Source: a virus. From it: DNA of 64,000 bases. Below are positions 101 to 57,735 of this stretch, one piece after another. The translations under genes and the position numbers were made by a program. The notes under the pieces are model-generated. The model ran no database searches and was not told where the DNA came from. It saw nothing but the letters and a program-made list of their open reading frames with translations. How positions within the stretch are numbered: position 1 is the first letter of the stretch; each line of letters starts with the position of its first letter. Location: the IMG/VR virus record IMGVR_UViG_3300040801_004428, positions 1 to 64,000 of that record; one strand, written 5' to 3'.

Positions 101-128
101 CTAGTTTGTTTTTTTCATGCCAACCAAT
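101..128 (-). promoter_or_regulatory. TGn-N6-TG-A7 upstream element (copy m)
   Basis: Minus strand reads TGG-TTGGCA-TG-AAAAAAA-CAAAC, then AGGTACC and the ATG at 90. It overlaps the last codons of the 101..718 CDS. Confidence 0.45.
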
Positions 129-718
129 ATAAGCGGCAATGAGGTGGCGTTCCCCTTGCCAGTTAGGGTCACAACTTGGTGTTGCATCAAATCGTTGAGG
201 GTGCGCCACTCTTGGTGAACAACTACTCCGTCTCCGTAAACAACGATGTAGGTTTCACCCTCCTTGGTGCGAGCCTTACAATCGTCCGTAATACCATGCG
301 CGGCTAACTCGTTGGAGTTTAGTCCTGCGACGAGGTAGCGATTCCCTTGTGGGTATATCTCAATGATGTGGTATTCCTCCGTGCGTGTTAGATCCTCCAG
401 TTGCTCTCCAGTCAAGTAGTACCAGTCTTTCTTAGGTTTAGCATTGGTGTAGTATTCTACCTTGTGGGGGTAGTACTCCGCTCTTGCGTATTTCCCATTA
501 TAGGATAGCTGAACACCTACGAAGCGATTCACACGGCTCCCATCCACATACAGTGTGTTGTGGTATGATTTTAGTTGATGCTTTTGCATGACTTCTATAG
601 GTCCAAAGTTATCATAGAATAGGTTTACAACATTGATTAAGTTATCCCCCCAGATGTAACCATAATGAAGGACTTCAGTGATGAAAGTCATATACTGCTC
701 TTTGGTTACCTTAAACAT
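101..718 (-). CDS. hypothetical protein, HQEW-motif paralogue family
   Basis: 205-aa ORF with GGAG about 8 nt before the ATG. Clearly similar by eye to the adjacent 733..1335 product (shared GETY.h.Y.DGV..HQEW ... LP..LVGMKKT). Confidence 0.75.
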   Translation of the reverse strand: MFKVTKEQYMTFITEVLHYGYIWGDNLINVVNLFYDNFGPIEVMQKHQLKSYHNTLYVDGSRVNRFVGVQLSYNGKYARAEYYPHKVEYYTNAKPKKDWYYLTGEQLEDLTRTEEYHIIEIYPQGNRYLVAGLNSNELAAHGITDDCKARTKEGETYIVVYGDGVVVHQEWRTLNDLMQHQVVTLTGKGNATSLPLILVGMKKTN

Positions 719-726
719 TTAGATTT

Positions 727-756
727 CTCCAACTAGGTTTTTTTCATGCCAACCAG
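727..756 (-). promoter_or_regulatory. TGn-N6-TG-A7 upstream element (copy k)
   Basis: Minus strand reads CTGG-TTGGCA-TG-AAAAAAA-CCTAG-TTGGAG...ATG(718). Confidence 0.5.
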
Positions 757-2161: not shown

Positions 2162-2250
2162 AAGCAAAATAGCTAAGAGCTAGTAAGTAAATAACGAGAG
2201 GGTAGGTGTTATGAGCACTTACCCTCTTACCACTTTGTTATACGTGAAAA
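2161..2250 (+). repeat. inverted-repeat arm L (gene-end block + stem-loop + partial TATACGTGAAAA motif)
   Basis: AAAGCAAAATAGCTAAGAGCTA ... AGAGGGTAGGTGTTATGAGCACTTACCCTCT ... TATACGTGAAAA. Its reverse complement recurs at 3374..3465. Confidence 0.85.
2197..2227. terminator. 12-bp stem-loop between convergent genes (possible bidirectional terminator)
   Basis: AGAGGGTAGGTG / CACTTACCCTCT with one G-T pair and a 7-nt loop. The flanking U-tracts are only moderate. Confidence 0.45.
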
Positions 2251-3005
2251 CTTTCTCGTACAACATTGAGTTGGTGTCTCTCTCCAGTGACCAGGTCCAA
2301 TGTGGTTAAACCCACCCCATCGGGCATAAACACCGATTGATACATGCACGTGGCTATTTTCGCCAACGTGACGTTCTCCACAGATTGTAGGGGCGGAAAC
2401 GCGTACCAATCCTCCTCCGGTGTCGTGAGCACCAACGTTTGTTCTTGACTAAACGCCCAATTAAAGGCGTTGATGAACCCTGGCGACCCGTTCTTGATAA
2501 CGGCGTCTTTTATTGAGCAGTATTGCTCGTAAGTGACAATGGGGTCTTTTCTCCGATTTGTTACCATTGTAAACCATTCACTTTTGGTTTCTTTATAAGC
2601 GTGGATTCCCCACAAGTGGTGTATGGGTTGTACCTCTGCTAGCCTCAACCCGTAGCACCATGCGATGGTATCTACCCATTCCTCCTGAGTTAAAGGTTTG
2701 AGGATTCTAGGCAATCCTGCAGCTTTGTAAGCGATCTTTAAATGATCAGCATCCCACGATGATACGTCTTCATTGGGGCTAATCCACGCTTTCCAGAGGT
2801 AGTCTTGGCGTAGTTTGGGCTCTGATCTGCAATATTCGCATGCAATGGCCTTGAGGTATTCTAATGGGCTGTATGTGTTTGCAAGCATAAGCCTCCAGTA
2901 TTGATTGTTCTGCTGCATTGCGAGTAGGTCATGTACTGGCATTTGCTGTAGATGCTCTAGTGCCTCTTCGTAGCTCATCTTAGATAGGGTGTCTCTCAAA
3001 CTCAT
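2238..3005 (-). CDS. hypothetical protein
   Basis: 255-aa ORF. Its ATG lies immediately after the stop of the 3007..3348 CDS. Confidence 0.75.
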   Translation of the reverse strand: MSLRDTLSKMSYEEALEHLQQMPVHDLLAMQQNNQYWRLMLANTYSPLEYLKAIACEYCRSEPKLRQDYLWKAWISPNEDVSSWDADHLKIAYKAAGLPRILKPLTQEEWVDTIAWCYGLRLAEVQPIHHLWGIHAYKETKSEWFTMVTNRRKDPIVTYEQYCSIKDAVIKNGSPGFINAFNWAFSQEQTLVLTTPEEDWYAFPPLQSVENVTLAKIATCMYQSVFMPDGVGLTTLDLVTGERHQLNVVRESFHV

Positions 3006-3006
3006 T

Positions 3007-3348
3007 TTAGACTTCCTCCATGAAGAATTTTGTAACTGATGGTCCTGTTACTGTAACAGGCCCGCCGGTGAGTTCCAATACCACGCCTGTTTCCTCATTA
3101 TACTTTGTAATCCAGTTTTGGTGGTAGTAGCTACCAAATTCATCCTCTACTAGATAAGAGGTACCAGGAGAAGCTGGGCTTACTTTGCAAGATTCTAGTT
3201 GAACCCAGTCAATCGCCTCAGGATGTTGGTCAATGAGCGTTTCTGGAACCAGCATTATGCTAGTTGTATCTTCAGGTGTGTAGATCTTAAACCGGTTATG
3301 GTAATTGGCGTATTCGCCTTCCTTTAATACTACTAAATAGTAGTCCAC
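3007..3348 (-). CDS. hypothetical protein (distant HQEW-family-like segment SYLVEDEFGSYYHQNW)
   Basis: 113-aa ORF with a GTG start at 3348, preceded by AAGGAG. Confidence 0.7.
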   Translation of the reverse strand: MDYYLVVLKEGEYANYHNRFKIYTPEDTTSIMLVPETLIDQHPEAIDWVQLESCKVSPASPGTSYLVEDEFGSYYHQNWITKYNEETGVVLELTGGPVTVTGPSVTKFFMEEV

Positions 3349-3360: not shown

Positions 3361-3392
3361 CTTAATTAGGTTTTTTTCACGTACAGCAATGC
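3361..3392 (-). promoter_or_regulatory. TGn-N6-TG-A7-CCTAA upstream element (copy a, archetype)
   Basis: Minus strand reads GCATTGC-TGTACG-TG-AAAAAAA-CCTAATTAAGGAG...GTG(3348). Confidence 0.55.
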
Positions 3393-3465
3393 GGCAAGAG
3401 GGTAAGTGCTCATAACACCTACCCTCTGCCTAGTCTATATTCTTAGCTCTTAGCTATTTTGCTTT
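3374..3465 (-). repeat. inverted-repeat arm R
   Basis: Reverse complement of the blocks at 2161..2250: the same 22-nt gene-end block (3444..3465), the same stem-loop (3397..3427) and the TACGTGAAAA motif. Confidence 0.85.
3397..3427 (-). terminator. stem-loop downstream of the 3450..3920 CDS
   Basis: Same 12-bp stem as 2197..2227. There is no clear U-tract, so terminator function is uncertain. Confidence 0.35.
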
Positions 3466-3920
3466 TTTATCACAAAGGAAGGATTCCACTCAGGATTCCA
3501 TCCATCTTGTACTTCCAGTTCTAATAGCTCTTCTTGAAGCCTCCTTGGAAGCTTAAAGAAATCCCCATTAACCCCGAGGTCAACCAACCTGCGAGTTTCT
3601 TCCCCAAATCTGTGTTTTACCTCCACCTCGTCGGTGGGCCCTAGTTGGTCTGTATCTTCAGGGTGGAGTAACTCATCATTGGGAAGAAATACAGACAGTT
3701 CTACAACTCCCTCTATGAGGGAAATTGTTATTGAAACAGTACTAGAGTACTTCAATCCTCTTATTAAGTTCTCTAAAACGTTTTCATACTCCCGGTCTGT
3801 ATGTTCCTCAAAGCAGATGGTTATATCAACACCTTCTTGCTCAACCTCGACCGATACTCCGGGCTTCAGAACCTCCGCTAGGAAGTCTCGCACAGGTCCA
3901 CAATACCTACATTTTAGCAT
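3450..3920 (-). CDS. hypothetical protein
   Basis: 156-aa ORF with AGAGG before the ATG. The last codons (..VIKKQNS) fall in the repeated block. Confidence 0.7.
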   Translation of the reverse strand: MLKCRYCGPVRDFLAEVLKPGVSVEVEQEGVDITICFEEHTDREYENVLENLIRGLKYSSTVSITISLIEGVVELSVFLPNDELLHPEDTDQLGPTDEVEVKHRFGEETRRLVDLGVNGDFFKLPRRLQEELLELEVQDGWNPEWNPSFVIKKQNS

Positions 3921-3925
3921 AATTA

Positions 3926-3963
3926 CCTCTAAGTTTTTTTTTTTCTTTCACACACGCCATTGC
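3926..3963 (-). promoter_or_regulatory. TGn-N6-TG-A-tract upstream element (copy g)
   Basis: Minus strand reads GCAATGG-CGTGTG-TG-AAAGAAAAAAAAAAA-CTTAGAGG...ATG(3920). Confidence 0.45.
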
Positions 3964-4471
3964 GGTTCAGTATTATCAACAACGTATCCGGGTCCAACAA
4001 TGCCTGTGGATTTTCCTCCATATAGCAAGCAACTATTAGGCGGTTTATATACTCCCTGGGTTGTTTCAACCCTTGCGGGGTGATAAAATCCGCCCAGTTG
4101 ATATACTTAGCTTCTACTCGCGCCATGTTGGCAGGAAGCGTATTGGTTATTAAATCCTCCTTGATGTATAAACTACGCGGAAATATACGATCAACGTATA
4201 AGTCCGCCCCGGGTTCGTAGTCCTGCATTGCCAGGTCCACCTTCTTCCCGGTGGTGTTAGTTGGTTGATGCCAGTCTGTGGCGTTTAGGTTCAAGTAAAC
4301 CAAAACACTTCTAGACGTGGGCACTTTGTATAGTACAATCCACCGGTTCTCAACCTTCGTGGCGTACAGGTAGTGATTTGGGCCATACCAATGTTTGTGG
4401 CCCGATTTGCCGATTTCTTCGGCTATCGCATTATACTCTCTTTTGAGGAAAAGATCGATGTAGTTACTCAT
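3929..4471 (-). CDS. hypothetical protein
   Basis: 180-aa ORF. The C-terminal ..CERKKKT is encoded by the downstream A-tract element. Confidence 0.7.
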   Translation of the reverse strand: MSNYIDLFLKREYNAIAEEIGKSGHKHWYGPNHYLYATKVENRWIVLYKVPTSRSVLVYLNLNATDWHQPTNTTGKKVDLAMQDYEPGADLYVDRIFPRSLYIKEDLITNTLPANMARVEAKYINWADFITPQGLKQPREYINRLIVACYMEENPQALLDPDTLLIILNRNGVCERKKKT

Positions 4472-4914: not shown

Positions 4915-4920
4915 TAACAT

Positions 4921-4946
4921 TCTCCATTGAGTTTTTTTCTTTGTGG
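4921..4946 (-). promoter_or_regulatory. A7 leader element (copy r)
   Basis: Minus strand reads CCACAAAGAAAAAAACTCAATGGAGAATGTTA-ATG(4914), a near copy of 1770..1804. Confidence 0.45.
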
Positions 4947-4975
4947 TAATAATACCCATAGAGTTAGAAAAACCG
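4927..4975 (+). promoter_or_regulatory. sigma-70-type promoter with shared leader
   Basis: TTGAGT ... TGTGGTAATAAT followed by ACCCATAGAGTTAGAAAAACCG-ATG. The leader is the same as at 15754..15777. Confidence 0.55.
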
Positions 4976-5983
4976 ATGAACGTTAACGCTACATCTGTAG
5001 AAATACATGGGAGTTTAATCTTCCCCTCGAATGGGTTCCTCCAGTCGCTTACCGCCGCGGCGGGATTAACCAGCACGCATAGTATCTATCTCCCCACTTC
5101 TCTGCCCGGTACTAAGCAAATGGTCACGTTGGACCAACTTGGCCAACTTGCAACCGAAGCTATACCCACAAGCGGTGCTTCGGGCACGGTGGAGTCTGTC
5201 AACATCTCTGCACCAGCAATGTTTGACGTCACCGGGGGTCCAATTACAACTACTGGTACAATAGACCTAGCGCTGGTTTCACAAGCAACGAAGACATTTT
5301 TCGCCGCGCCTGATAACGCCTCGGGTGTACCCACCTTTAGGCAGATCACCCAAGCGGATTTATCCCACCTTCCGTTAGACTTCCACGCGCAAAATACCGA
5401 CACACATACAAACGCCCTAGCATTTACCATCGCAGATGGAACACCCACTCAAACGGTTAAGTTCCAAACCGGCGCGTCTAACACTCTAACCTTAGAAGAC
5501 GGATCGGGCGCGCGGGCTAATCTAGCCGTGGCGAATTTAGACATCTCCGGTGAAGTCACCGGAACAATATTTGAAGTCTCAGTAGAGGAAATCAAACTTG
5601 ACGACAACACAATTGAACTCAATTCTAACTACACGGGTTCGACACCTACAGAAAACGCGGGCATTGAGGTCCAACGCGGAACGCTTAGCAATGCACAATT
5701 TCTATGGAATGAAACAGACGACCGCTGGGAAATCGGCACAGTCGCGGCAAGACACTACATCGGCCGAGTCGCAGAATTCGCCGTCATTAACGCAGACCTC
5801 ACCGCAGGCATTTTGGACCTCGTACACGGTTTCAACGACGCGAGAGTCTCAATCCAAGCGTATGACTCTGCCGACAAACCCTATCACATTGGTTTTTCAA
5901 TTATTGACGCGAATACTGTGCGGGCGGACTTCTCCGACCTCGCACCGTTAACTGGTACATGGCACGTAAAAATTAGGGAGTAA
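4976..5983 (+). CDS. tail-fibre-like protein
   Basis: ATG at 4976. Ser/Thr/Gly-rich beta-type sequence (..VTGGPITTTGTIDLALVSQATKTFFAAPDNASGVPTFRQIT..). Adjacent to a second fibre-like gene and to baseplate genes. Confidence 0.55.
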   Translation: MNVNATSVEIHGSLIFPSNGFLQSLTAAAGLTSTHSIYLPTSLPGTKQMVTLDQLGQLATEAIPTSGASGTVESVNISAPAMFDVTGGPITTTGTIDLALVSQATKTFFAAPDNASGVPTFRQITQADLSHLPLDFHAQNTDTHTNALAFTIADGTPTQTVKFQTGASNTLTLEDGSGARANLAVANLDISGEVTGTIFEVSVEEIKLDDNTIELNSNYTGSTPTENAGIEVQRGTLSNAQFLWNETDDRWEIGTVAARHYIGRVAEFAVINADLTAGILDLVHGFNDARVSIQAYDSADKPYHIGFSIIDANTVRADFSDLAPLTGTWHVKIRE

Positions 5984-6861: not shown

Positions 6862-8750
6862 TAGTCCACATAGTGGCGGGCCAAGACCCTCTCACTATTA
6901 GTGAAGAATAATAACTCGGCTCTATTGAGATCATTTGTATCATTAGGGCCGCTTTTTACTACCTTCAAGATGAAGGATCGCCAGTTGTCGTTCAACGGCA
7001 GCCAGGTGATATTCGATGCAACGGGTGCAATACCGTTAGGTACTTCAACTGGGAGGAAGGTTCGGGTCTCCGCAACTCTCACAGTTGAGATTTCTCCCTC
7101 AACGCTGTAGTTCATATTCACAATTGTGGCACTATTACAAGGCGCTCCATCACATCGTGCTATTGTTCTAATCCTCACCCACGCAGCATTTGCTACATTC
7201 GGCGCGCCAGTGTTACCAATAATGAATTTTTGCTGCGATCTGTTATTAGTACCCGCAGAGCCGAACCCACCCACGATTTCATCAACAAAACCGGAGTTAT
7301 CAAACTCTACAACTTCCTCATTTACGGCGCCATCTTCATCACCGATGGTAATACGCCGGAAGTCAATCCCCAACTGCATGTGGTCTTCCACAAACCCGCG
7401 CTTGGCGTAATGGGAAGATTCAGAATCCATACATCTCGGATCGCGTGGTACTTTGACCGGATCCTGCGTGGGGGAGTGATTAACTGCTTGGTATTCACCC
7501 GTGTTGCCTACGCATCTTAGGAAACCACCCCTACTAGAGCCATCACACCGCGGGTCTTGAAAATTAATAACTTCATTCCCATCACCTCGGTCATAATACC
7601 CATGACCTCCCTCACACCGTTTGAAGGTTCCTCTCCGGTCGAAGCACTTAACACCCGCGTCTAGTCTATACGCGCAGCGGCAGTTGTTGTCATACTCTGT
7701 GTAGAAGATTTCCCCTGGATTTTTTGACGCATATACACCAAACAATTGTGGAATCATACACTTCTGCAGATTCGTATTCCAGTTAAATGGGGCCACACAA
7801 GCTTCGGGCGAGTCAATCATGGGGTGTGGACCACCACAACCGATGAATGAACCCGGCGCGGGGTCACAATTACCATCGGGCATTTCCTCAAAAAACCAGG
7901 AGCCCTCATTTTCGACATAAACTAATACGATGTATGAATACGGTGTGTTGAAGATCCAGTCTTTTGACTCCTGATTGATGGAGTGAACGGGGGTTGCAAT
8001 CTCCCCAATGACTTGCTTCTTCGCTCCAATGACGGCCGGAAATACGTTCAACGCCCCGCCAACGTCTAACATCGCAACGCGGTCTCCATCCCGTGGGTTT
8101 TCGGGCAATAGGATGGTTAAACTCCCGCCGGAGGTATCTACCGGTACTCTGTCCCACGAATTTGCTTCATAATCCCCAGTGGCGACATTAGTGTTGACTA
8201 ACTGAAGTGGCGTGTCATTATGCGCACCGGCATAAACATGCGGGCGTAAATCTTCAATGGTAGTTAAGTCCCCCGATGCTGAAACAGCTGCAAGAGGGGT
8301 GTGTGGAACCACTCTACTTGGGAGGATGTCGTCTACATTGATCGCTCCCAAGTCATCAACATACACATAGGAGACTTGCCCATCGGTGCACTGCACAGGT
8401 TGGTCCACCCAACAGCGTTTGACTGAATTTGTGTCGATGATACACCCCGCGGCCACATCCACCGTGTGGAAGGGTGGCGTATGAGCGTAGCCACTTGGCT
8501 TGTCGGTAACCTCCCCTCCCCAAGGAGAGACAATATTCCCCTCCCCATTGAGGAATTTCTTATTCTCTCCACTGAAGCCCACTAGGTCTTTTTTAATATG
8601 CACGGAGGGAACAAACAACTGGCCATTTGGCAAGTCCATTTGTTCAAAACCGTCGGGGTAATCAGCTCTTGAGACGAACTGCGGATCTTGCCAGCCATTG
8701 GCGTGTTCTGGACCGACCGGGGTACCGTGCGCGAATTGTGTTTTTGCCAT
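6858..8750 (-). CDS. Cys-rich baseplate/tail structural protein
   Basis: 630-aa ORF whose ATG shares a base with the stop of the baseplate-J-like gene (TAATG). More than 20 Cys are clustered in the central third. The functional call is positional only. Confidence 0.5.
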   Translation of the reverse strand: MAKTQFAHGTPVGPEHANGWQDPQFVSRADYPDGFEQMDLPNGQLFVPSVHIKKDLVGFSGENKKFLNGEGNIVSPWGGEVTDKPSGYAHTPPFHTVDVAAGCIIDTNSVKRCWVDQPVQCTDGQVSYVYVDDLGAINVDDILPSRVVPHTPLAAVSASGDLTTIEDLRPHVYAGAHNDTPLQLVNTNVATGDYEANSWDRVPVDTSGGSLTILLPENPRDGDRVAMLDVGGALNVFPAVIGAKKQVIGEIATPVHSINQESKDWIFNTPYSYIVLVYVENEGSWFFEEMPDGNCDPAPGSFIGCGGPHPMIDSPEACVAPFNWNTNLQKCMIPQLFGVYASKNPGEIFYTEYDNNCRCAYRLDAGVKCFDRRGTFKRCEGGHGYYDRGDGNEVINFQDPRCDGSSRGGFLRCVGNTGEYQAVNHSPTQDPVKVPRDPRCMDSESSHYAKRGFVEDHMQLGIDFRRITIGDEDGAVNEEVVEFDNSGFVDEIVGGFGSAGTNNRSQQKFIIGNTGAPNVANAAWVRIRTIARCDGAPCNSATIVNMNYSVEGEISTVRVAETRTFLPVEVPNGIAPVASNITWLPLNDNWRSFILKVVKSGPNDTNDLNRAELLFFTNSERVLARHYVDY

Positions 8751-10279
8751 TATTGGTTACCTTCTGAACAAATGGGATCGTTTTGGATGATGTTTGTCGT
8801 GCCGTCAAAGTTAGCACGAAATGCTGTTGTTCCTTTACAAGCTAGTAAATCTCCTGCTCTTATTTTATCAGATGGTGTGGATGGAGCCACATTAACTGAG
8901 CGGAGCTTCCATGCGGAGTAAGGATACGCGGGTTGGATTTCACTATCTGTTAAGTAGCGGATAGTATTACCATCCATTGTTTCTTGGAGCACTAATCCGC
9001 GAGAGTTGAGCGCTCTGAGTGGGAGGGATTTTCTTACTTCGGAGGTTAAACCATCGTTTAGGGCCAATATGGAGGTTGAAAAAACGTACGAGGAAACTTG
9101 CGCGTAGCGTCTCAAATATGCGAAGAAATCATTATAGGAGATTGTCGCATTAATGCTTGCCCTATACAAGTAGTCGTTTGCCGCGCGGAGTAGTGTTTGT
9201 CGGATGATGTCAGGCTGGGTGAGATTGTCCACCATGATGGTGAGGTCTACATACTCAGCGCGTGCATTTTCGATATGAATTTCAGAGTTAATCCAAATTG
9301 TTCGATTCGCTGCCTCTCGGACTTTTTCCAAAATCCCTTCTTCAAAAGCCGTATTACGCTCCGATCGCAGGAAGACAAACAAATGCTGGGAGTTTTGCGC
9401 ATTGTGGGTGTCTAAATCCGCTAGGCGGTCAACCAATCGGGATACAAAATTACTATCGTATTCAATGCCCGCGCGGTTTTGATAATCGAGGAGTTTGTCG
9501 AGTAAGTTTTCAACCTGCCCGTTGTAGGGTAGGTCAATTTGCTCCGGAACCAGGCGGTTTACCTCATCGCGGTAAACATACCCCGCGCGAAATGTCCTCG
9601 TTGGGGTTGAACTCTGCGGAACAACTACAACCTGCGTGTTGTCGCCCAACATGTGGCGAAACCAATCAGACCAGTCAACCACTGAGACAGGGTTTCTCCT
9701 CCTTAAGGAGTTAAATGCCCGACCTTTGGTATCTTGCCAGGACTCGCCATTCCGCCCGCCGTATGCAGAAACAGGATTAGTGACAATCAAATTAGGAATC
9801 GATCTCAACAAACGGGTGACGGTCCGCGCGGGTACGTTGCCCACAGTGCCTGGAGTCTCACAAACTGCTACAACTGACACTGTTGACTGGCCCGGTAAAT
9901 AGTCAATCACCTCAGAAGTTTTGAAAATAACTCCGGATTGGGTAGACACGCGTAGGCCTTTATCAATAATGAGGGATTTTTCTGTCTCTGTGCGCGTGAA
10001 TACGAGGCCAACCACCGCGGGCGCACTGGCAATTTGCATAAAACCGAGCGTGCGCAGCCAATTTGCGGTCCAAGCCTCCGGCGCTTTGTTCAACTCATTT
10101 AGAAGTTGTGCCAAGGAGTAGGCTGTACCTTCGGCGATAATAGCCGGCACGGAGCCAGGACTAATATCGGTGAGTCTACCCCCAGAGGACATAAGCATTT
10201 TGCGCTTACTATACTCCGCGAGTTGAAGCTCATTGCGCGGATCTAGGTTAACTGGTAATATAGGTTGGTATAATGGCAT
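8750..10279 (-). CDS. baseplate J-like (P2 gpJ / T4 gp6 family) protein
   Basis: 509 aa. Contains ..VVAVCETPGTVGNVPARTVTRLL.SIPNL.VTNPVSAYGGRNGES.., which matches the gpJ-family signature (A..G..gN ... N...GG.d.Es). Confidence 0.65.
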   Translation of the reverse strand: MPLYQPILPVNLDPRNELQLAEYSKRKMLMSSGGRLTDISPGSVPAIIAEGTAYSLAQLLNELNKAPEAWTANWLRTLGFMQIASAPAVVGLVFTRTETEKSLIIDKGLRVSTQSGVIFKTSEVIDYLPGQSTVSVVAVCETPGTVGNVPARTVTRLLRSIPNLIVTNPVSAYGGRNGESWQDTKGRAFNSLRRRNPVSVVDWSDWFRHMLGDNTQVVVVPQSSTPTRTFRAGYVYRDEVNRLVPEQIDLPYNGQVENLLDKLLDYQNRAGIEYDSNFVSRLVDRLADLDTHNAQNSQHLFVFLRSERNTAFEEGILEKVREAANRTIWINSEIHIENARAEYVDLTIMVDNLTQPDIIRQTLLRAANDYLYRASINATISYNDFFAYLRRYAQVSSYVFSTSILALNDGLTSEVRKSLPLRALNSRGLVLQETMDGNTIRYLTDSEIQPAYPYSAWKLRSVNVAPSTPSDKIRAGDLLACKGTTAFRANFDGTTNIIQNDPICSEGNQ

Positions 10280-10311
10280 AAGAAAAAAACCTAACTGGGA
10301 GGTATTACCAC
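10266..10311 (+). promoter_or_regulatory. extended -10 promoter plus A7-CCTAACT leader (copy o)
   Basis: TGGTATAAT-GGCAT-AAGAAAAAAACCTAACTGGGAGGTATTACCAC-ATG. Positions 10280 onward are a near copy of 57705..57735. Confidence 0.55.
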
Positions 10312-10389
10312 ATGGTAGACTTCATTCTAGTGGATGTAGCAATCCTGGCGATTGTTATATCCCTAATGTACGTAACGGAGGGGAAATGA
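10312..10389 (+). CDS. 25-aa hydrophobic peptide
   Basis: MVDFILVDVAILAIVISLMYVTEGK. GGGAGG lies upstream, and the stop overlaps the next ATG (ATGA). Too short for the ORF track. Confidence 0.4.
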   Translation: MVDFILVDVAILAIVISLMYVTEGK

Positions 10390-10523
10390 ACTTACTACTA
10401 GTTGCTGCATTTGTTGTGGCAATTTATTCAATGGTGGAAGCTCCTCTTTGGGTGCTTCTCACAACCACGGCTGTTACGATGATGTTTATACTATGGAGCG
10501 TGTATGCCAATGAGAAGTCTTAG
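10386..10523 (+). CDS. 45-aa membrane peptide
   Basis: MNLLLVAAFVVAIYSMVEAPLWVLLTTTAVTMMFILWSVYANEKS has two hydrophobic segments. GGAGGGG precedes the ATG. Confidence 0.5.
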   Translation: MNLLLVAAFVVAIYSMVEAPLWVLLTTTAVTMMFILWSVYANEKS

Positions 10524-14044: not shown

Positions 14045-14707
14045 CTAGTTGGTTCCATTATACAACATCTCGAAGTCATACTGAGTGAAGACCATATTTT
14101 TTAATTGGTCTCTCACTTCTTGTTCTTGCTTACGGGCACGATTACACTGGCGGAGGTTTTTACCACCCTCGCAGATGGTCCTATCGTTGGTGTAACTAAT
14201 CAAGAAGTTTAGATCTCTATCGGAAAGATCTGTTCCAATGGTTGGCACCCCTGAAGGAGTATAATCACTCTGAACTTCATGCGTGTCGTCAAACAAAGGC
14301 CCGGGTTCCATAACCCCTACTTTTAACGTCTCCTCGAGTTTATCCATGGTAATACTTAACATCTCACAGACCTTCTCCTTCGGTACGTTTTTACTCGTCT
14401 GTTCGATAATCTTATAATAGAGGGTTTGCTCTGCTCGGGGAATTCTAATCGCGCGAGTTTTATCACGATAAAAATGCCCAATGTAAGCTACCACCCTCTG
14501 CCAGGCATAAGTAGACAGTTTCATCCCCTTATTGGGGTTATAATCATGCACCGCCACACAAGCAGCATACCAAGCCACTTGGGTTATATCATCCAAAGTG
14601 GCAGCATTCCCCGAATGCTTTTTAGCATACGCGCGCCTGGCAAGGGTCTCTACAACCCATTTTAACTTTAGCACATCTTTTTGTTGTTTTCTGGTAAGTT
14701 TTCTCAT
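14045..14707 (-). CDS. sigma-70 family RNA polymerase sigma factor
   Basis: Regions 2-3 are recognisable: ..LDDITQVAWYAACVAVHDYNPNKGMKLSTYAWQRVVAYIGHFYRDKTRAIRIPRAEQ.. . The C-terminal region is divergent. Start taken at the ATG at 14707, with AAGAGG upstream. Confidence 0.8.
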   Translation of the reverse strand: MRKLTRKQQKDVLKLKWVVETLARRAYAKKHSGNAATLDDITQVAWYAACVAVHDYNPNKGMKLSTYAWQRVVAYIGHFYRDKTRAIRIPRAEQTLYYKIIEQTSKNVPKEKVCEMLSITMDKLEETLKVGVMEPGPLFDDTHEVQSDYTPSGVPTIGTDLSDRDLNFLISYTNDRTICEGGKNLRQCNRARKQEQEVRDQLKNMVFTQYDFEMLYNGTN

Positions 14708-15518
14708 GACCTCTTTTGTTTGTAAAAATCCTAATACAGGCCTAACCTTAAAGGAATTCAATCTAAATACAATATCCCGCCAAAAGGCGATCAACCAATG
14801 CGTCCAGCTTCAACTTGAAGTGTCTACCTCCACCGAGCAGGGACAATCCGCCCAGCGGGCCACCGGAGATCCGGCAATAATCGAAGGAAGGTGGAAAGAC
14901 ATCGATGGTGTAGTAAACGATGTGTATAAATCAGAGCCAGAAAGCAGGCAAAAGATTCATTACAAACCATTTGATGACCGTCACGCCCATGATAGGATTG
15001 TTGAATCCTTCACAGAGCGGTTGGATTATGTATTCCAACGAGCGGCTGAACTTGACGGGGATGATAAAACTCGCGCAATGGAGATGATCTTTAGGGATAT
15101 TACCTCCGTCGTTAGAGCTCTTTACGGAGACATCTTCGACCTCCAAGAAAGGCTAGGCGAAGCCATGGTGAGATTAGATGCGTTGGAAGATTGGAACGGC
15201 GCGGCGTATAATGATGGGTTTGACCTACCCGGGCATGATATACCCCACCATGATCAGTATGACCCACATCCGCCGTATCCTCACTTCCATGGGCGTCATT
15301 TGATTCTAGATAGAGAACAGGATCTCCGCTATCATCAGGGTAGAATGACTTTGTATGATCCATTATACCAGAAATCCCCGGGAATGAAGCGCTACTTGGC
15401 AGCACAACAACAGGCGGGAGTTTCCAAGCCTGAGAATTCTCCCCATAGGGAAGAAAAAGGCTATAGATTTGACCAATCTAAGCTTAAGGGGGACGGCTCT
15501 TCACGTACACCAGTGTAG
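14706..15518 (+). CDS. hypothetical His/Pro/Tyr-rich protein (start uncertain)
   Basis: Long ORF. Its ATG at 14706 shares the tetranucleotide CATG with the divergent sigma start, and no good SD is present. The true start may be an internal GTG. Confidence 0.45.
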   Translation: MTSFVCKNPNTGLTLKEFNLNTISRQKAINQCVQLQLEVSTSTEQGQSAQRATGDPAIIEGRWKDIDGVVNDVYKSEPESRQKIHYKPFDDRHAHDRIVESFTERLDYVFQRAAELDGDDKTRAMEMIFRDITSVVRALYGDIFDLQERLGEAMVRLDALEDWNGAAYNDGFDLPGHDIPHHDQYDPHPPYPHFHGRHLILDREQDLRYHQGRMTLYDPLYQKSPGMKRYLAAQQQAGVSKPENSPHREEKGYRFDQSKLKGDGSSRTPV

Positions 15519-15521: not shown

Positions 15522-15547
15522 AGAGGACAGGTTTTACCCTGCCCTCT
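15522..15547. terminator. stem-loop between convergent genes
   Basis: AGAGGACAGG-TTTTAC-CCTGCCCTCT (one mismatch). No clear U-tract. Confidence 0.35.
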
Positions 15548-15554: not shown

Positions 15555-15704
15555 CTAGCTGTTGCTAGACGACATCTTCAGCGCAATGCTGAACAACACC
15601 ACGCCGGCCGTTAGGCCCACGGTGGCGGCAACTGTAGGGTCAATGGGCTTGTCTGTATCACCCATTGCAGCTGAGGCGGTTGGATTCTTCTTGAGATTCT
15701 TCAT
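15555..15704 (-). CDS. 49-aa membrane protein
   Basis: MKNLKKNPTASAAMGDTDKPIDPTVAATVGLTAGVVLFSIALKMSSSNS, with GAGGGAA upstream. Below the ORF-track length cut-off. Confidence 0.45.
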   Translation of the reverse strand: MKNLKKNPTASAAMGDTDKPIDPTVAATVGLTAGVVLFSIALKMSSSNS

Positions 15705-15721: not shown

Positions 15722-15777
15722 TCTTAAGTTCTTTTTCTTTTTTATGGTATAATATACCTATAGAGTTAGAAAAACCG
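15722..15777 (+). promoter_or_regulatory. extended -10 sigma-70-type promoter with shared leader
   Basis: TGGTATAAT (15745..15753), then ATACCTATAGAGTTAGAAAAACCG-ATG. Confidence 0.6.
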
Positions 15778-17874: not shown

Positions 17875-17879
17875 ACAGT

Positions 17880-17918
17880 CTCCTTAAGACTTAGTTTTTT
17901 TTTCATGTATGACATTGC
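17880..17918 (-). promoter_or_regulatory. TGn-N6-TG-A9 upstream element (copy e)
   Basis: Minus strand reads GCAATGT-CATACA-TG-AAAAAAAAA-CTAAGTCTTAAGGAGAC...ATG(17874). The leader is identical to copy h. Confidence 0.55.
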
Positions 17919-40987: not shown

Positions 40988-41233
40988 ATGGTTGATACAA
41001 TCGTACGACAGTTTTACGGAAAACGTCCTATAGGTTTGGAAGAAATGTTCTTGCTTGATCTACACTACGTGTTGGATCATCCCCAATTGGAAGTTGAAGA
41101 CATTATTAGACTCGAACTAGCATGTTCCAAATGCACAGAGTCTATTCGAGATTTGGCCCTATCCATAATAAGAAAAAAATACTTGGATCTTATGTATGGC
41201 AGAGCATCTCTGCGGCGCTCAAGTTTCGCTTGA
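40988..41233 (+). CDS. hypothetical protein
   Basis: 81-aa ORF. Confidence 0.55.
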   Translation: MVDTIVRQFYGKRPIGLEEMFLLDLHYVLDHPQLEVEDIIRLELACSKCTESIRDLALSIIRKKYLDLMYGRASLRRSSFA

Positions 41234-47212: not shown

Positions 47213-47243
47213 CTCCAATTAGATTTTTTCATGCATGCCATTG
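47213..47243 (-). promoter_or_regulatory. TGn-N6-TG-A6 upstream element (copy s)
   Basis: Minus strand reads CAATGG-CATGCA-TG-AAAAAA-TCTAATTGGAG...ATG(47203). Confidence 0.45.
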
Positions 47244-47866
47244 ACCCGAATCCCAAACGAAGCGTAGAAGTCCACAATGTCTTCTACGTTTTCGGCCAAG
47301 AGGGACGTTGCGCGGATTACCGCGCCGGCGTATTCCAGTCCCGCAGCGGCCACGGCTGGGACGTAGCCTTGGACTTCGTATCTGCTCATTGGTCCGATGG
47401 TGTTGTCCAATTTGCAGGGCCATTCGTTTGCCCTGCAGTTTTCAACCAGCATTTGAGCCTCGTCACCTCGGGCGAGTACGTGAGTGTACTCCACCTTGAT
47501 CCAATCCAATGTGGGGAACAGTGGCTTCATCGAGGCCCCACCTATAAGTTCGATTAGCACTCTATCATCGATCCTCCATGCACGTAGCATAGAGGAGTCT
47601 TTATTTACCCAGATAAACTCCATTATCGAAGAGGATTTGGCAAAACCGTACCAGTCCTCCTCGTTGGATTTGCCGTCTGGCCTGATCAGCTCCGTATCTG
47701 GCCAGTGATAATCCTCCTCTCCGTACCGGCGGATGTAAGAGGCTTGATGGCCCTCGGGATACTTAGGGGCCGGCAACCACACTAGATCATCGGTTGGTTC
47801 TGCACCCTTTGTGTAAAGGTGCGAAAACTCGCACAGTTGGGCCCACAGGCATGATGAAACTAACAT
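47219..47866 (-). CDS. hypothetical protein, C.W..LC.FS paralogue family
   Basis: ATG at 47866 (MLVSSCLWAQLCEFS..). Shares the N-terminal Cys motif, W..V.Y, EWP and GY.PA landmarks with the 47908..48501 product. Confidence 0.65.
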   Translation of the reverse strand: MLVSSCLWAQLCEFSHLYTKGAEPTDDLVWLPAPKYPEGHQASYIRRYGEEDYHWPDTELIRPDGKSNEEDWYGFAKSSSIMEFIWVNKDSSMLRAWRIDDRVLIELIGGASMKPLFPTLDWIKVEYTHVLARGDEAQMLVENCRANEWPCKLDNTIGPMSRYEVQGYVPAVAAAGLEYAGAVIRATSLLAENVEDIVDFYASFGIRVNGMHEKI

Positions 47867-47871: not shown

Positions 47872-47899
47872 CTCCAATTTGGTTTTTTTCATGCCCACC
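47872..47899 (-). promoter_or_regulatory. N6-TG-A7 upstream element (copy i)
   Basis: Minus strand reads GGTGGGCA-TG-AAAAAAA-CCAAATTGGAG...ATG(47866). Confidence 0.45.
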
Positions 47900-47907
47900 T
47901 TTGGGTG

Positions 47908-48507: not shown

Positions 48508-48536
48508 CTCCTACGGCTTTTTTTCATGCACGCCAG
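48508..48536 (-). promoter_or_regulatory. TGn-N6-TG-A7 upstream element (copy j)
   Basis: Minus strand reads CTGG-CGTGCA-TG-AAAAAAA-GCCGTAGGAG...ATG(48501). Confidence 0.5.
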
Positions 48537-48868
48537 TGTAGCCAGGTTAGGCTGATGACCCGACTAGCGGGTCTAGTCGCCACAGCCTGTATTCTGGCCA
48601 CCTTCACCTGATCGCTATATAGGTAATTCCTCTTGGCGTTCAGGCCAAAGAAAGTTGCCATATGAGGCGCAATTGCCTCCGTAAAACTTTGCCTCGTTTG
48701 AAGGCGTAAAGTTTTGCACCCATTACGCAGGATAATCTGCGCGGCGGGGCGTGAGCTCTCAGAGAGCTCGTCTAGTGCCATCACTTCAATTGAAGTGCCC
48801 CACGGGGTACTCCCACATTCGAGTATGCTTTCAGCCACTTGGCGAAGGATTTCTTGCGAAATATACAT
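48524..48868 (-). CDS. hypothetical protein
   Basis: 114-aa ORF. Confidence 0.6.
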   Translation of the reverse strand: MYISQEILRQVAESILECGSTPWGTSIEVMALDELSESSRPAAQIILRNGCKTLRLQTRQSFTEAIAPHMATFFGLNAKRNYLYSDQVKVARIQAVATRPASRVISLTWLHWRA

Positions 48869-54812: not shown

Positions 54813-55777
54813 GTAATGCCCTCGTATATTGTGGATGGGATTTCGACAATTTGCCTATCTAATATTATATTACCATTGACCGTGTAGGTAATTTTCGCAT
54901 AGTTGTTGGGTAGCGCAAATCCGTCGTGATCCATGCCTTCGTAATTAATTGGAGAGCGCGCAACCGTGAAGGTGAATCCAGACTCGTTGGTCGTAGTACA
55001 CCAGATGATGCGATCCCCACCTTCGGTAATAAGAGTGTCATCATCATCTGTGAGAATAGCACACGATGATTGGCAACTATAAGTTGTGACTAACCCACAG
55101 GGGTTAAATCCCCCACAGTTTGAGGGATCCGCGCGGGTTATTGCCACAACGTCATCTTCAGGCCCAACACATGGACCCTGTGGAACAACATCCTTAAATC
55201 GTGGTCGAGCTCCCGGCGAATAGTACGTATCTACTACAACCCATGAGTTGCCACATATATCATCCATATACGAACTTGCGCAATTCATCGCCGCGCCAAA
55301 TGGGGTTGAAATATCTCCCCATTGGATTGTTAAATTCTCGTATGTGTCCTCCGAGCAGGAGGCTACTGGCGCGACGGATTGAAACGGTCCTTGGCACTTC
55401 TCCGACCAGCCTTGATTATAAAGGCCTTGAATACCTGTTTTGATCAACGCGGCGCCGAATCTATCCAAACAGCGGTATACCTCCCCACGGGTTGGCTTCT
55501 TCGGTGGGCAAACTCCACCCATTTCATCCGAATAGCGGAGATAATCAGCCCCTAGTTCAAACTTATTGATGCAACCTTCGCGCGTGTCAACTCGCAAACG
55601 GTATGTGCCATCAAGGAGTAGTTCCCACCCAAGAGAGACGCAATCCCCTGCATTAACAACCGGCAGTCCGGCTTGAAATGAGCCGGGATACCACCTATCA
55701 ACTCGCGGTCGGGCGTAGCAAGTCATCGAGCGTGTGGTACCCGAACAGGAGATTGAAGTAAGTCGTTTGTTATACAT
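54797..55777 (-). CDS. Cys-rich tail/baseplate structural protein
   Basis: 326 aa with about 18 Cys. Embedded in the structural operon. Confidence 0.45.
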   Translation of the reverse strand: MYNKRLTSISCSGTTRSMTCYARPRVDRWYPGSFQAGLPVVNAGDCVSLGWELLLDGTYRLRVDTREGCINKFELGADYLRYSDEMGGVCPPKKPTRGEVYRCLDRFGAALIKTGIQGLYNQGWSEKCQGPFQSVAPVASCSEDTYENLTIQWGDISTPFGAAMNCASSYMDDICGNSWVVVDTYYSPGARPRFKDVVPQGPCVGPEDDVVAITRADPSNCGGFNPCGLVTTYSCQSSCAILTDDDDTLITEGGDRIIWCTTTNESGFTFTVARSPINYEGMDHDGFALPNNYAKITYTVNGNIILDRQIVEIPSTIYEGITWPQV

Positions 55778-57704
55778 CTGACGTTAGCTCCAAAAATATG
55801 GTTTCTCTAATTGAGGGGTTACGCTCGCAGATTATTTCAACCCTAAAGGTGGTAGAACCCCTGATGGGAGTAAATTCCACAATGCCATTGCCAAGAATTT
55901 GTATATCAAACGTTTCAATCTCTGGATGGATGTTGATAACCCTTATTTTGGTATCCTCTACAGGTGCGCTAATACCTCCGAGAGCAAAAAGATCCAAACT
56001 AGTAGCTTCACTAAGGGTCTGCTGGATGACTTTATTAACGGCCACATAGTCTTGCGGATCCACCGTCTCATCGTAGCCAGATCCCGTTTCGTCCCATAAT
56101 CCATAGATTGGTTCTCCAATTGTGGATATTCCCGTCATGAAGTAAAAATACCCTGTTTTTATAGTCCTCGGGGAGCTATAAACATACACTGATTCCATGA
56201 CTCGGTTATATGCTTCTGAGTTCCTCTCATAATATGTGGGAATTCGCAGCTGAGGTCTAACATCAGGGGTTGACACCCTATCAATTCCCACCCTCAGTGG
56301 GGTTACATCCCCCACTTCGTCAGAAACCGCCGGGCGGGAGAACTTCCTCAAGCGCAGTGGCATGGTGAATTCACCCACATCGGGGGTTAGATGATCCGCG
56401 CGATGTCTCATCCCATTGAGGTTGAGCACATCAAAAAAGAAGTGCAAACACATGTAGGTGCCCTTCATGCGTTGGATTCCCTTCCAGCGGTCATAGCTAT
56501 GATAATAAGGAGCTCCCCAGTTTGAATTATACTGGTATCCGCCGTGGATGTAGGCATTGAAGGGGTATAAGTCTTTACGACCGGAGGTAAATCCGTTGTG
56601 GAGAATATGCCTTTTTTCAGTAATAGACAAGCTTACATAACTGCCGGTGAGATTATGCCAGTTTTTGTACAAAGGCGGGTCGCGGTCAGAATCAATGAAG
56701 CCGAAATGCTGCGCGAGCCAGTCTAAGACCATATGAGTTTTGGTCTTAAAATGTTCTAGTTCGATATATTCCGCGGAATTTAATCCGGGGATGGAGAGAT
56801 TCGATTCTGCGGCTAGCACTGTTTCGATGAAGTTCTCCCTCCGGCGAATACGCGCAGAGCAGGGGATAAACTGATAGCCCGCGCTCAATGGGTTTAGGTA
56901 ATCAGTGAAAAAATTGTCAATTGTTTCTTTGCCGACCTGGAGGGTTTCGTCTCCCGGTTCGGTCAAGTACTTCATGATGGGAGGTTCATAGGTTGTGTCA
57001 ACCTTACGCAGATCCTCAATATCAATGACTCTTCCCTCACGGGTTGTCATCCTATAAAGGGGAAACACCTTGGTTAGGTATTCCTCATCACAAGAGGCAG
57101 CCAACACACGTTCTTCACAAACTGGGAGAGTTTGCGTGTAGTCTCTAACCGCCCTTGCGGCGTAATCCTCATCACAGAAGAAAGTCGATATTCGGCTATT
57201 AACCCTATCGGGTAGCTCCCCACTGATTTGTAATACCCCTAAGTAGTCAACCCACACATGGAAGTTAGCATCACTTGGGAGTTCCACACTAAGGCCGGGG
57301 AAATTCACTTCATCGCCTTCTCTCCATTTGATGGTTGCTGATCGGAGGACTACCTTCTCCGAGACGTCCGTCCCCTCTTGGACGATATCCCCATTTGTGG
57401 TTAACATCACTCCGGAGCCCGCGCCCACGTAGGACCCCAGCGAATCGTATTCAACCCTCAACCAGGGGAATCTACTAATAAAGTAACCATCAACTTGGGT
57501 GATTTTATACTCTAAGATGATGCGTGCTTCGTCGTAATACTGCTCAACTTCTGGCCTCAACCAAATTGGGAGAGAATGATATGTGGGTCTGCCAACAAGT
57601 CCTGGTTCGCAGCATGTGTAGCGATGTACTAACGCGGACTTGCCACTCGGTCTGGAACCACGCCGGGGTGCCCATGGATCTGTTTGTAGTCGATTATTGA
57701 CCAT
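55770..57704 (-). CDS. large baseplate/tail structural protein
   Basis: 644-aa first gene of the leftward structural operon. The functional call is positional only. Confidence 0.4.
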   Translation of the reverse strand: MVNNRLQTDPWAPRRGSRPSGKSALVHRYTCCEPGLVGRPTYHSLPIWLRPEVEQYYDEARIILEYKITQVDGYFISRFPWLRVEYDSLGSYVGAGSGVMLTTNGDIVQEGTDVSEKVVLRSATIKWREGDEVNFPGLSVELPSDANFHVWVDYLGVLQISGELPDRVNSRISTFFCDEDYAARAVRDYTQTLPVCEERVLAASCDEEYLTKVFPLYRMTTREGRVIDIEDLRKVDTTYEPPIMKYLTEPGDETLQVGKETIDNFFTDYLNPLSAGYQFIPCSARIRRRENFIETVLAAESNLSIPGLNSAEYIELEHFKTKTHMVLDWLAQHFGFIDSDRDPPLYKNWHNLTGSYVSLSITEKRHILHNGFTSGRKDLYPFNAYIHGGYQYNSNWGAPYYHSYDRWKGIQRMKGTYMCLHFFFDVLNLNGMRHRADHLTPDVGEFTMPLRLRKFSRPAVSDEVGDVTPLRVGIDRVSTPDVRPQLRIPTYYERNSEAYNRVMESVYVYSSPRTIKTGYFYFMTGISTIGEPIYGLWDETGSGYDETVDPQDYVAVNKVIQQTLSEATSLDLFALGGISAPVEDTKIRVINIHPEIETFDIQILGNGIVEFTPIRGSTTFRVEIICERNPSIRETIFLELTSDV

Positions 57705-57735
57705 AAGAAAAAAACCTAACTAGGAGAGTATTACC
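57705..57735 (+). promoter_or_regulatory. A7-CCTAACT leader element (copy p)
   Basis: AAGAAAAAAACCTAACTAGGAGAGTATTACC-ATG(57736), a near copy of 10280..10311. Confidence 0.5.

Follow-up and report, generated by a model that had tools for sequence, protein, structure and literature searches.

The starts of many genes in a 64,000-nucleotide stretch of viral DNA (IMG/VR record IMGVR_UViG_3300040801_004428, positions 1 to 64,000; the whole stretch is called the window here) carry a recurring element composed of two separable modules. The first (module L) is an A-rich leader of the form (A/T)G, A6-11, C(C/T)TAA, about 2 nt, GGAG, 6 to 10 nt, and the start codon, and is present in about 29 copies. 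The second (module B) is a 14-nt box, CA(A/C)TG(G/T)-YRTRCR-(A/T)G, that directly abuts the A-run. Fourteen copies combine box and leader, 15 consist of the leader only, and 8 consist of the box only. We interpret the element as a modular gene-start cassette, in which the box would most likely be an internal, phage-specific promoter of the extended −10 type that lacks a −35 element, with initiation at or in the A-run; this interpretation is held tentatively, with a little under an even chance of being right. The window comes from a JGI metagenome contig of 118.6 kb, and all conclusions rest on the 64 kb alone.

The anatomy, enrichment, modularity, and positions of the two modules are direct observations. 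Of 82 tracts of six or more A residues (A6+), both strands counted, 27 fell on the sense strand within 45 nt upstream of a called start, compared to 2.4 expected (binomial p ~2e-21), and these 27 tracts sat 13 to 38 nt upstream of the start. For A7+ tracts, the fraction within the same distance was 16 of 23. When 26 copies were aligned on the A-run, a G came immediately before the run in 24, and A or T preceded that G in 25. The start codon lay 13 to 24 nt past the A-run in most copies, with a GGAG-type Shine-Dalgarno (SD) sequence between. A degenerate leader 13-mer, WGAAAAAAHYYWA, had 12 matches compared to 0.24 in dinucleotide-preserving shuffles, while a box 15-mer, CAHTGBYRYRCRWGA, had 12 compared to 0.06. 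Because both patterns were derived from the same data, these ratios are inflated, yet the margin is still very large. An earlier annotation made from the letters alone (the sequence-only reading) had proposed about 20 copies of an element as a candidate class of phage promoters. The motif is not a chance product, and all of the copies that had been listed are present at their coordinates and strands, but the leaders number about 29 rather than 20, only 14 of them have a box, and the eight box copies without an A6+ run were not on that list. Genes downstream of the copies are mostly unrelated, with two paralogous pairs only. Predicted folding of the ribosome-binding region averaged −4.75 kcal/mol for motif genes and −6.28 kcal/mol for other genes, a difference that was not significant (p = 0.12).

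The leader is not confined to one context. Leaders without a box fill all six divergent control regions (1336 to 1393, 4915 to 4975, 10280 to 10312, 30727 to 30850, 37539 to 37599, and 57705 to 57735), stand at promoter-proximal genes behind TGGTATAAT/TGGTAAAAT-type boxes, and begin 5 to 6 nt past the 3' ends of tRNA-Met and tRNA-Arg. Since tRNA-Arg has its own TGGTATAAT box 9 nt upstream, the tRNA-adjacent leaders lie within a longer transcript. Behind TATAAT-type boxes, the A-run starts 2 to 11 nt after the hexamer, where it overlaps or directly follows the expected start site. The sequence-only reading gave this distance as 5 to 9 nt, which did not hold, as the gaps measured at the boxes at 10267, 19285, and 29316 were 8, 11, and 2 nt. 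Its view of the A-tract as an initiation region or leader survives, but not as a property of one promoter class: because leader-only copies occur at divergent regions, after TATAAT-type boxes, and after tRNAs, module L is a general 5' leader or initiation region.

The box is more restricted. Numbered from the G preceding the A-run (G0), its conserved positions are C-13 A-12 (A/C) T-10 G-9 (G/T) Y R T R C-3 R (A/T) G0, or about 18 bits over 14 contiguous bases, a value inflated by the choice of copies by pattern. The dinucleotide one base before the YRTRCR hexamer had T in 16 of 18 box copies and G in 18 of 18. A TG-n-hexamer architecture was thus present as the sequence-only reading had described, but the best-conserved parts are CAnTG and the C..G, not the hexamer alone. 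The absence of a −35 hexamer was confirmed, with no column above 0.6 bit from −50 to −14 upstream of the box in the aligned copies. The box was found only behind a co-oriented upstream gene, and many boxes overlap the last codons of that gene. Two embedded copies that were compared directly (2247 to 2268 and 19553 to 19574) lie in different reading frames; since the box recurs in the last codons of unrelated genes and these two copies differ in frame, its conservation is at the nucleotide and not the protein level.

A promoter role for the box, the location of the start site, and the factor that would read the box are inferences. As a rule, early and middle mRNAs of this phage would begin with module L, which presents the ribosome-binding site and whose A-rich stretch is either transcribed first or exposed by processing. 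T-10/G-9 of the box would correspond to a TG at −15/−14, YRTRCR to the −10 hexamer, and the invariant G two bases past the hexamer to the discriminator G. Transcription would initiate within the A-run or at its beginning, a place at which A residues are likely to be added reiteratively, and a start 6 to 8 nt past the hexamer would fall on the fourth to sixth A of the run. The box would in this way serve DNA-metabolism genes and small genes without a known function, by restarting transcription behind an upstream gene or a terminator hairpin.

Several observations are consistent with such a promoter class. At the 29316 promoter, the hexamer is in identical register to the A-run (TATAAT-AG-A6 compared to TATACG-TG-A7), whereas at the other TATAAT-type boxes the A-run starts 7 to 11 nt past the hexamer. 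The phage's TGGTATAAT boxes and TG(G/T)TRTACR differ chiefly at the last two hexamer positions. An oriented, high-information signal of 14 nt without a −35 element suggests recognition by a sigma factor contacting about −18 to −5, whose span it matches. Endoribonucleases, which are considered below as rival readers, are not known to need as much specificity as the box carries. In Escherichia coli, AAA/TTT tracts at start sites favor productive reiterative initiation (PMC12709180). Finally, one copy stands behind a canonical intrinsic terminator, a hairpin at 17927 to 17949 (−) that reads AGAGGGGA..TCCCCTCT and then UUUUUAUAU (−13.3 kcal/mol, z −5.2). The gene behind this terminator needs a new start, and the box is the sole conserved sequence in the 50-nt gap.

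Other observations weigh against a promoter. Sigma-70-type −10 elements need A as the second and T as the sixth base, and the box satisfies the first rule in only some copies and the second in none: among 18 copies, the second base of the hexamer is A in 5, G in 11, and T in the remaining 2, and the sixth is A or G in all 18, never T. The box is absent from six of six divergent regions, where promoters must exist. Five boxes face antisense or nongenic DNA. Four of them (2233, 2247, 15497, and 34182) stand at three convergent gene ends, and the fifth is an arm of the 19538/19553 palindrome, whose second arm (19553) is inside coding sequence. Because A-run leaders also follow tRNAs within a longer transcript, the leader alone is no mark of initiation. 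The motif is also missing from the relatives examined, with neither A-run leaders nor boxes in the distant polymerase relatives L069, L070, and L071 or in 50 kb of cyanophage S-CBWM1. The proposal of a promoter class made by the sequence-only reading is therefore retained in part: the extended −10 geometry, the register at 29316, and the copy after the terminator speak for it, and the antisense-facing boxes and nonspecific A-run do not.

Copies with both modules precede genes for thymidylate synthase, an exonuclease, and dTMP kinase, as well as many small open reading frames (ORFs) of unknown function. The overlap with upstream genes produces the recurrent C-terminal peptides that the sequence-only reading had pointed out. 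The copy at 104 to 129 (−; TATTGGTTGGCATG-A7-CAAAC) overlaps the last codons of gene 101-718 (GMKKTN before the stop codon); 733 to 758 (−; CACTGGTTGGCATG-A7-CCTAG), ahead of gene 101-718, overlaps gene 733-1335 at its end (GMKKT); 3929 to 3962 (−; CAATGGCGTGTGTG-AAAG-A11-CTTAG) overlaps the end of gene 3929-4471 (CERKKKT); and 47219 to 47243 (−; CAATGGCATGCATG-A6-TCTAA), upstream of the dTMP kinase gene, overlaps gene 47219-47866 at its end (GMHEKI). A variant copy at 58173 to 58197 (+; CTCTGGCGCACGAG-A6-GCTAG) overlaps the end of gene 57736-58197. Within the 3' end of gene 17071-17874, the copy at 17088 to 17116 (−; CGATGCTATACGTG-AAG-A7-CCTTA) precedes the exonuclease gene (16430 to 17074), and the copy at 26500 to 26529 (−; (TAA)GCTGTACGTG-ATTG-A7-CTAAG) starts at the DNA polymerase stop codon, before thymidylate synthase. 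Two copies follow hairpins: 3366 to 3391 (−; CATTGCTGTACGTG-A7-CCTAA), 5 nt past the hairpin at 3397 to 3427 and before gene 3007-3348, and 17890 to 17917 (−; CAATGTCATACATG-A9-CTAAG), 9 nt past the terminator described above. Another, 21855 to 21880 (−; CAATGTCGTACGAG-A7-GCTTA), begins 5 nt past the stop of gene 21885-22127. The remaining copies are 1767 to 1791 (+; CACTGGTGTACAAG-A6-CTCAA), before gene 1805-2161; 29781 to 29806 (−; CAATGTTATACGTG-A7-CTTAA), before gene 29346-29771; 47878 to 47903 (−; CAAAGGTGGGCATG-A7-CCAAA); and 48513 to 48538 (−; CACTGGCGTGCATG-A7-GCCGT).

Among leader-only copies, those in divergent regions include a back-to-back pair in 1336 to 1393, at 1346 to 1372 (−; TTG-A8-CCTAATCGGAGG) and 1354 to 1378 (+; AAG-A6-GTACTAATTGGGA); 4927 to 4952 (−; AAG-A7-CTCAATGGAG), with a GGTAATAA box on the opposite strand; 30746 to 30771 (−; AAG-A7-CTAAGTCTTAAGGAGAC); and 37561 to 37585 (+), after a TATAAT / TATATC box. 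The copy at 10269 to 10294 (+), 8 nt past a TGGTATAAT box, is near-identical to the copy at 57694 to 57719 (+; CATAAG-A7-CCTAACTAGGAG) in a 31-nt divergent region. Behind other boxes are 19263 to 19287 (−), 11 nt past a TGGTAAAAT box and before gene 17970-19238, and 29303 to 29327 (−; GGGTATAAT-AG-A6-GACCTAAGAGG), in register with the TATAAT box before the DNA polymerase gene. The tRNA-adjacent leaders are 20462 to 20487 (−; TTGGG-A7-CACACTAAGAGG), 5 nt past the tRNA-Met 3' end, and 21022 to 21046 (−; TTGGAG-A6-CCTAATTGAGG), 5 nt past the 3' end of tRNA-Arg, whose TGGTATAAT box is at 21122 to 21129. A further copy at 23111 to 23135 (−; TTG-A6-CAAACGAGG) is within the 3' end of gene 23090-23800, and one at 35954 to 35978 (−; TAG-A6-TACTAATGGAGG) precedes the GyrA-like gene. 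Two sequences are leader-like: 15733 to 15757 (−; TATACC-AT-A6-GAAAAAG), before small ORF 15555-15704, and 41159 to 41184 (+; AAG-A7-TACTTGG), inside gene 40988-41233, which is the weakest copy and has no clear SD.

Some leaders recur almost unchanged. Ribosome-binding leaders of the form A-run-CTAAGTCTTAAGGAGAC, 17 to 24 nt long, are identical before three unrelated genes (17878 to 17901, 30734 to 30757, and 58187 to 58209), and GTCT..AGAC within them could form a 4-bp stem around the SD. The two compact divergent control regions at 10280 to 10312 and 57705 to 57735 are near-identical, with about 31 nt between start codons. In both, the spacer from SD to ATG of the plus-strand gene and the GGTAATAC box of the minus-strand gene are reverse complements, and a single tract serves as A7 in one leader and as T7 in the other. 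Neither of the minus-strand genes (baseplate wedge 8750-10279 and 55770-57704) has an SD. Near-identical leaders of another kind, ATACC(C/T)ATAGAGTTAGA(A/G)..ATG, are found directly past GGTAATAA/TGGTATAAT boxes at 4952 to 4979, 15754 to 15781, and 59243 to 59269, with no recognizable SD. Small ORF 15555-15704 (−), whose 49 codons put it below the default ORF cutoff of 60 amino acids, specifies a hydrophobic peptide, is preceded by an A6 leader of its own, and has a hairpin and a box after it. At 10313 to 10390, a membrane-like ORF of 25 codons is ATGA-coupled to the next small ORF.

Four of the 22 boxes lie 3 to 9 nt past a stable, recurring AGAGGG...CCCTCT hairpin (z −3.5 to −6.6). The terminator at 17927 to 17949 and its U-run end 9 nt before the box, and the other three hairpins end 3 to 6 nt before theirs. 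These are 3397 to 3427 (−; AGAGGGTAGGTG..CACTTACCCTCT, directly upstream of the box, z −6.6), its inverted copy at 2197 to 2227 (+; between convergent genes 1805-2161 and 2238-3005, z −6.5), and 15522 to 15547 (−; AGAGGGCAGG..CCTGTCCTCT, directly upstream of the box, z −3.5). The cassette at 3374 to 3427 has a 54-nt inverted duplicate (2197 to 2250, 91% identity) that contains box 2233 to 2255. Together with a 23-nt repeat (100% identity), this duplicate forms inverted repeats at 2160 to 2250 and 3374 to 3466 that bracket genes 2238-3005 and 3007-3348, an arrangement that looks like cassette-mediated inversion or insertion. Neither gene had a Pfam hit, and a PHROG search, run for 3007-3348 alone, returned none.

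Six of the eight box-only copies have no same-strand gene start within about 40 nt. The copy at 2233 to 2255 (+) comes past the hairpin at 2197 to 2227, with no gene following on the plus strand, and forms an imperfect palindrome with the copy at 2247 to 2268 (−), which is in the last codons of gene 2238-3005. A third, 15497 to 15515 (−), is 6 nt past the hairpin at 15522 to 15547, at a convergent gene end and antisense to the end of gene 14706-15518. Copies at 19538 to 19559 (+) and 19553 to 19574 (−) are the two arms of a 37-bp palindrome inside ORF 19499-19753. A box-like sequence at 34182 to 34200 (−; CTATGTTGTACGTGA), also at a convergent gene end, has its last bases in the GyrA-like gene's stop codon. 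The other two copies precede genes, at about 90 and 60 nt: a box-like sequence at 19843 to 19861 (−; CACAGGTGTACGTG), which stands ahead of gene 19499-19753, of repeat D1, and of a triple 67-nt repeat, and 41744 to 41769 (+), a box with an interrupted A-run (TG-AG-A5) located 27 nt before the portal gene's GGTAATAT box. The latter, 60 nt before the portal gene, is the only box that precedes a late structural operon. The 67-nt repeat lies between gene 17970-19238 and small upstream genes (19311 to 19377, 19391 to 19457, and 19778 to 19844, 70 to 94% identity), each unit comprising a small hairpin (AGTCCGGGGTAGGACT), AATAG-A6, and an AT-rich tail, and could represent strong promoters, iterons, or an origin.

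The positions of hairpins and box-only copies bear on a post-transcriptional explanation, which has a minor but appreciable chance of being correct. A sequence-specific endoribonuclease of host or phage would cut polycistronic RNA at (A/T)G|A-run after the box, so that the box would be an RNA recognition site, the upstream mRNA would end near a protective hairpin, and the downstream mRNA would start with the A-rich leader that promoter-proximal and tRNA-proximal genes have in any case. This would account for boxes being found only with a co-oriented gene upstream and in no divergent region, and for boxes at or near the ends of three genes without a downstream partner (2247, 15497, and 34182). 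It also fits the leaders 5 to 6 nt after two tRNAs, where 3' processing must occur, and the hairpin-box-A-run order, which would leave a hairpin-protected 3' end. RNase Y reportedly prefers cutting after G, a preference echoed by the G before the A-run in 24 of 26 copies. However, known degradative RNases need far less than a 14-nt sequence of about 18 bits, a site directly past a good intrinsic terminator (17927 to 17949) would see little substrate, and an RNA signal would be idle in the three box-only copies that are antisense to the local gene (2233, 15497, and 19538). No candidate nuclease was identified in the window.

There is a smaller chance that the box is a DNA binding site for a phage activator or repressor beside weak promoters, with single boxes as half-sites and the palindromes as full dimer sites. 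Two independent, imperfect palindromes of 37 to 40 bp (2233 to 2268 and 19538 to 19574), with boxes facing each other around GAAAG-N2-CTTTC, lie within the 3' parts of unrelated ORFs and in different frames, and boxes occur on either strand where no gene lies downstream. Operators would not usually look like the 14 of 22 boxes that are single, oriented with the downstream gene, and at zero distance from the A-run, and the analysis turned up no candidate DNA-binding protein. RNA hairpins, folding at about −15 kcal/mol, or recombination scars would explain the palindromes just as well; the plus arm of the first one belongs to the inverted duplicate.

A sigma-70-family gene at 14045 to 14707 (−) encodes a 220-amino-acid protein in which regions 2 to 3.1 were detected, and is a candidate reader of the box only. 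Region 4 was not detectable, and the predicted structure (pLDDT 65) was too poor to decide on it. The protein scores best against SigB/F/G-type family models. The sequence-only reading had named this sigma factor as a plausible reader of the element, a link that found no support, and a separate class of GGTAATAC/TGGTATAAT boxes appears to fit a group-3 sigma at least as well. The (T/G)GGTAATA(C/T) class (GGTAATAC) lies mostly 23 to 31 nt upstream of the portal, baseplate-wedge, and other structural-region genes, with 9 of 29 occurrences so placed compared to about 0.75 expected by our own estimate; GGTAATA boxes are at 4945, 10303, 30814, 39843, 41785, 54868, 57729, 61080, and 61688. GGTATAAT boxes are at 10267, 15746, 21122, 29316, and 59233, and genes of early type, the DNA polymerase gene, and tRNA-Arg have TGGTATAAT boxes ahead of them. 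An extended −10 theme thus seems to come in three variants in the window, TGGTATAAT, TGGTAATAC, and TGK-YRTRCR.

The Bacillus SigB promoter element is GGGTAT. Cyanobacterial SigF, a group-3 sigma factor, reads GGTAA at −12 (PMC2532724), and GGTAA is contained in the GGTAATAC class. Unlike group-3 promoters, the box has neither GGTAA nor GGGTAT; the window's sigma factor, like those of group 3, would act on a class distinct from TATAAT. The nearest sigma-carrying isolate, S-CBWM1 (L074), has a sigma factor with 30% identity to that in the window. In 50 kb of its genome there are no A6 tracts, and GGTA(A/T)A(A/T)(T/C) boxes number 16 on the gene strand compared to 3 on the other; these are mostly GGTAAAA(T/C) and mostly 20 to 35 nt before starts or tRNAs. 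In the window, the sigma gene (−) and gene 14706-15518 (+, good coding score) are head to head with overlapping start codons (TCATGA, 14705 to 14708), so the promoter of each must lie within the other gene; the arrangement is conserved in relative L072.

Still at a low probability, the box may reflect a new specificity of the phage sigma factor, or of a sigma-modifying factor, that reads TGn-YRTRCR-nG with no −35 element and places starts in A7, giving early and middle mRNAs headed by 5' oligo(A). Copies with NTG before the A-run could then yield leaderless MKKT mini-ORFs that pass ribosomes to the main gene.

As an explanation of the whole element, a translational device is hardly likely. NTG (ATG, GTG, or TTG) and the A-run would encode a mini-ORF (NTG-AAA-AAA-AC(C/T)-TAA for MKKT-stop, and variants), perhaps with a leaderless AUG, that feeds the main start by termination-reinitiation. 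Eleven copies have NTG before the A-run, and the nine evaluated all give peptides beginning MKK. Stops fall between 17 nt ahead of the main start and 13 nt past it, with three ATGA overlaps, ACC-TAA and ACT-TAA are synonymous variants, and 8 of the 11 NTG copies keep one frame offset to the main ORF while other copies are uniform. More than half of the leaders, however, have AAG, GAG, TAG, or CAG and no start codon, no SD precedes the mini-ORF, several NTG codons are merely in-frame codons of the upstream gene, and the frame bias is based on 11 cases (p ~0.01 to 0.03).

Neutral spread of a hairpin-box-leader cassette by duplication or recombination, with similarity through descent only, is just as improbable. 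It would explain the 54-nt and 23-nt inverted duplicates around genes 2238-3348 and the near-identical ribosome-binding leaders at unrelated loci (CTAAGTCTTAAGGAGAC three times and CATAAG-A7-CCTAACT twice). In most copies, though, similarity ends at the motif edges with nothing conserved from −50 to −14, downstream genes are unrelated, copies are kept inside coding sequence in different frames where compared, and strict sense orientation with a fixed distance to start codons indicates selection. Candidates tried and rejected were a sigma-54 promoter (wrong GG-to-GC spacing), an ECF-type promoter with TGAAAC as −35 (the −10 would land in the ribosome-binding site), CAMTGK as −35 with CCTAAT as −10 (the start site would remove the SD), NtcA or CRP sites (half-site likeness only partial), an opposite-strand intrinsic terminator (the T-run comes before the hairpin, not after), and a −1 ribosomal frameshift site (the frame does not match X XXY YYZ).

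Compared to known systems, the box shares with extended −10 (TGnTATAAT) promoters a TG one base before the hexamer, a G two bases after it, and no conserved upstream element; the third base of its hexamer is still T and the fourth still a purine, and the phage's own TGGTATAAT boxes share this frame. It differs in having C-purine instead of A-T at hexamer positions 5 and 6, mostly A or G at position 2, an extra conserved CA(A/C) before the TG, and a presumed start in a homopolymeric A-run. PeSL (promoter-early stem-loop) cassettes of T4-type phages (PMC2839356, PMC4122927) are likewise repeated composites of a stem-loop and promoter-like sequence, many of them among small genes of unknown function, and the inverted copy pair that brackets a two-gene module here is as expected of recombination points. 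Unlike a −35/−10 host sigma-70 early promoter, the promoter part here has no −35 and a noncanonical hexamer, the hairpin accompanies only 4 of 22 boxes, the phage is not T4-like, and recombination is deduced from one inverted duplicate and not from genome comparison. The element thus resembles both families in its presumed working and belongs to neither, failing the hexamer rule of the first and the promoter type of the second.

Reiterative initiation at homopolymeric starts (PMC8812562, PMC12709180) has a possible parallel in the A6-11 where initiation is expected, behind both TATAAT-type boxes and the box, but the same A-run is also at read-through positions after tRNAs. The box consensus is unrelated to the T4-type late (gp55) promoter, TATAAATA at −10. 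Gene junctions of vesicular stomatitis virus (VSV), a nonsegmented negative-strand RNA virus, read TATG-A7 / CT / AACAG. The (C/T)ATG-A7-C(C/T)-TAA between genes is alike in form only, the genome here being that of a double-stranded DNA phage with a DNA polymerase, portal protein, and tRNAs. Late mRNAs of poxviruses, which carry poly(A) heads at their 5' ends, offer a functional analogue of reiterative initiation. The A7 tract at the presumed start, the noncanonical hexamer, and the embedding in C-terminal codons are unusual features, but they do not make this well-defined regulatory cassette a new category of system.

As a promoter, the box would define the middle-gene transcription signal of a phage lineage without a close cultured relative, with a −10 specificity that departed from the universal A(-11)/T(-7) rule and starts placed in a slippage-prone A-run. 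The 5' oligo(A) heads, if real, would be a bacterial-virus counterpart of poxvirus late mRNA leaders. Should it be a processing site, it would be an unusually sequence-specific one. The two modules and the GGTAATAC/TGGTATAAT boxes provide a map of probable transcription units for genome annotation, and the modules can be used to search metagenomes for relatives. With their inverted pair, the hairpin-box cassettes are a non-T4 example of regulatory cassettes that may drive gene shuffling.

The window encodes a gamma-like family-A DNA polymerase (26526 to 29291), a D5-like primase/helicase, both ribonucleotide reductase subunits, thymidylate synthase, dTMP kinase, a GyrA-like protein, a Mu-type portal protein, baseplate and tail-fiber proteins, two tRNAs, and the sigma-70-family protein. 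Over the window, the two tRNAs alone reached the gathering score of Rfam covariance models. The closest isolates are still distant, cyanophages S-TIM5-like and S-CBWM1 at 25 to 31% protein identity. The DNA polymerase had no match to phage genomes (megablast) or in IMG/VR, and among 5.8 billion proteins it matched the contig itself and then only sequences of at most 31% identity. The exact motif 15-mer occurred at 68 loci in IMG/VR, one hit apiece, with leader clustering at none. Sigma alignment against IMG/VR and GTDB genomes gave nothing or high-GC bacteria only; relatives of the sigma factor with 64% and 42% identity are on contigs of 2.4 and 1.5 kb that end short of any box. An unrelated phage (L070, JGI 3300042953 contig) has its own repeated motif, rich in GGATCC(C/T), upstream of many genes.

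A separate repeat in the window is a 12-mer, (G)TAACCCCTGATG, at 1939, 42576, 51126, and 56263. It falls in four unrelated genes in the same frame (V-T-P-D), is about 17-fold overrepresented, and is also present antisense at 49391 and 55856.

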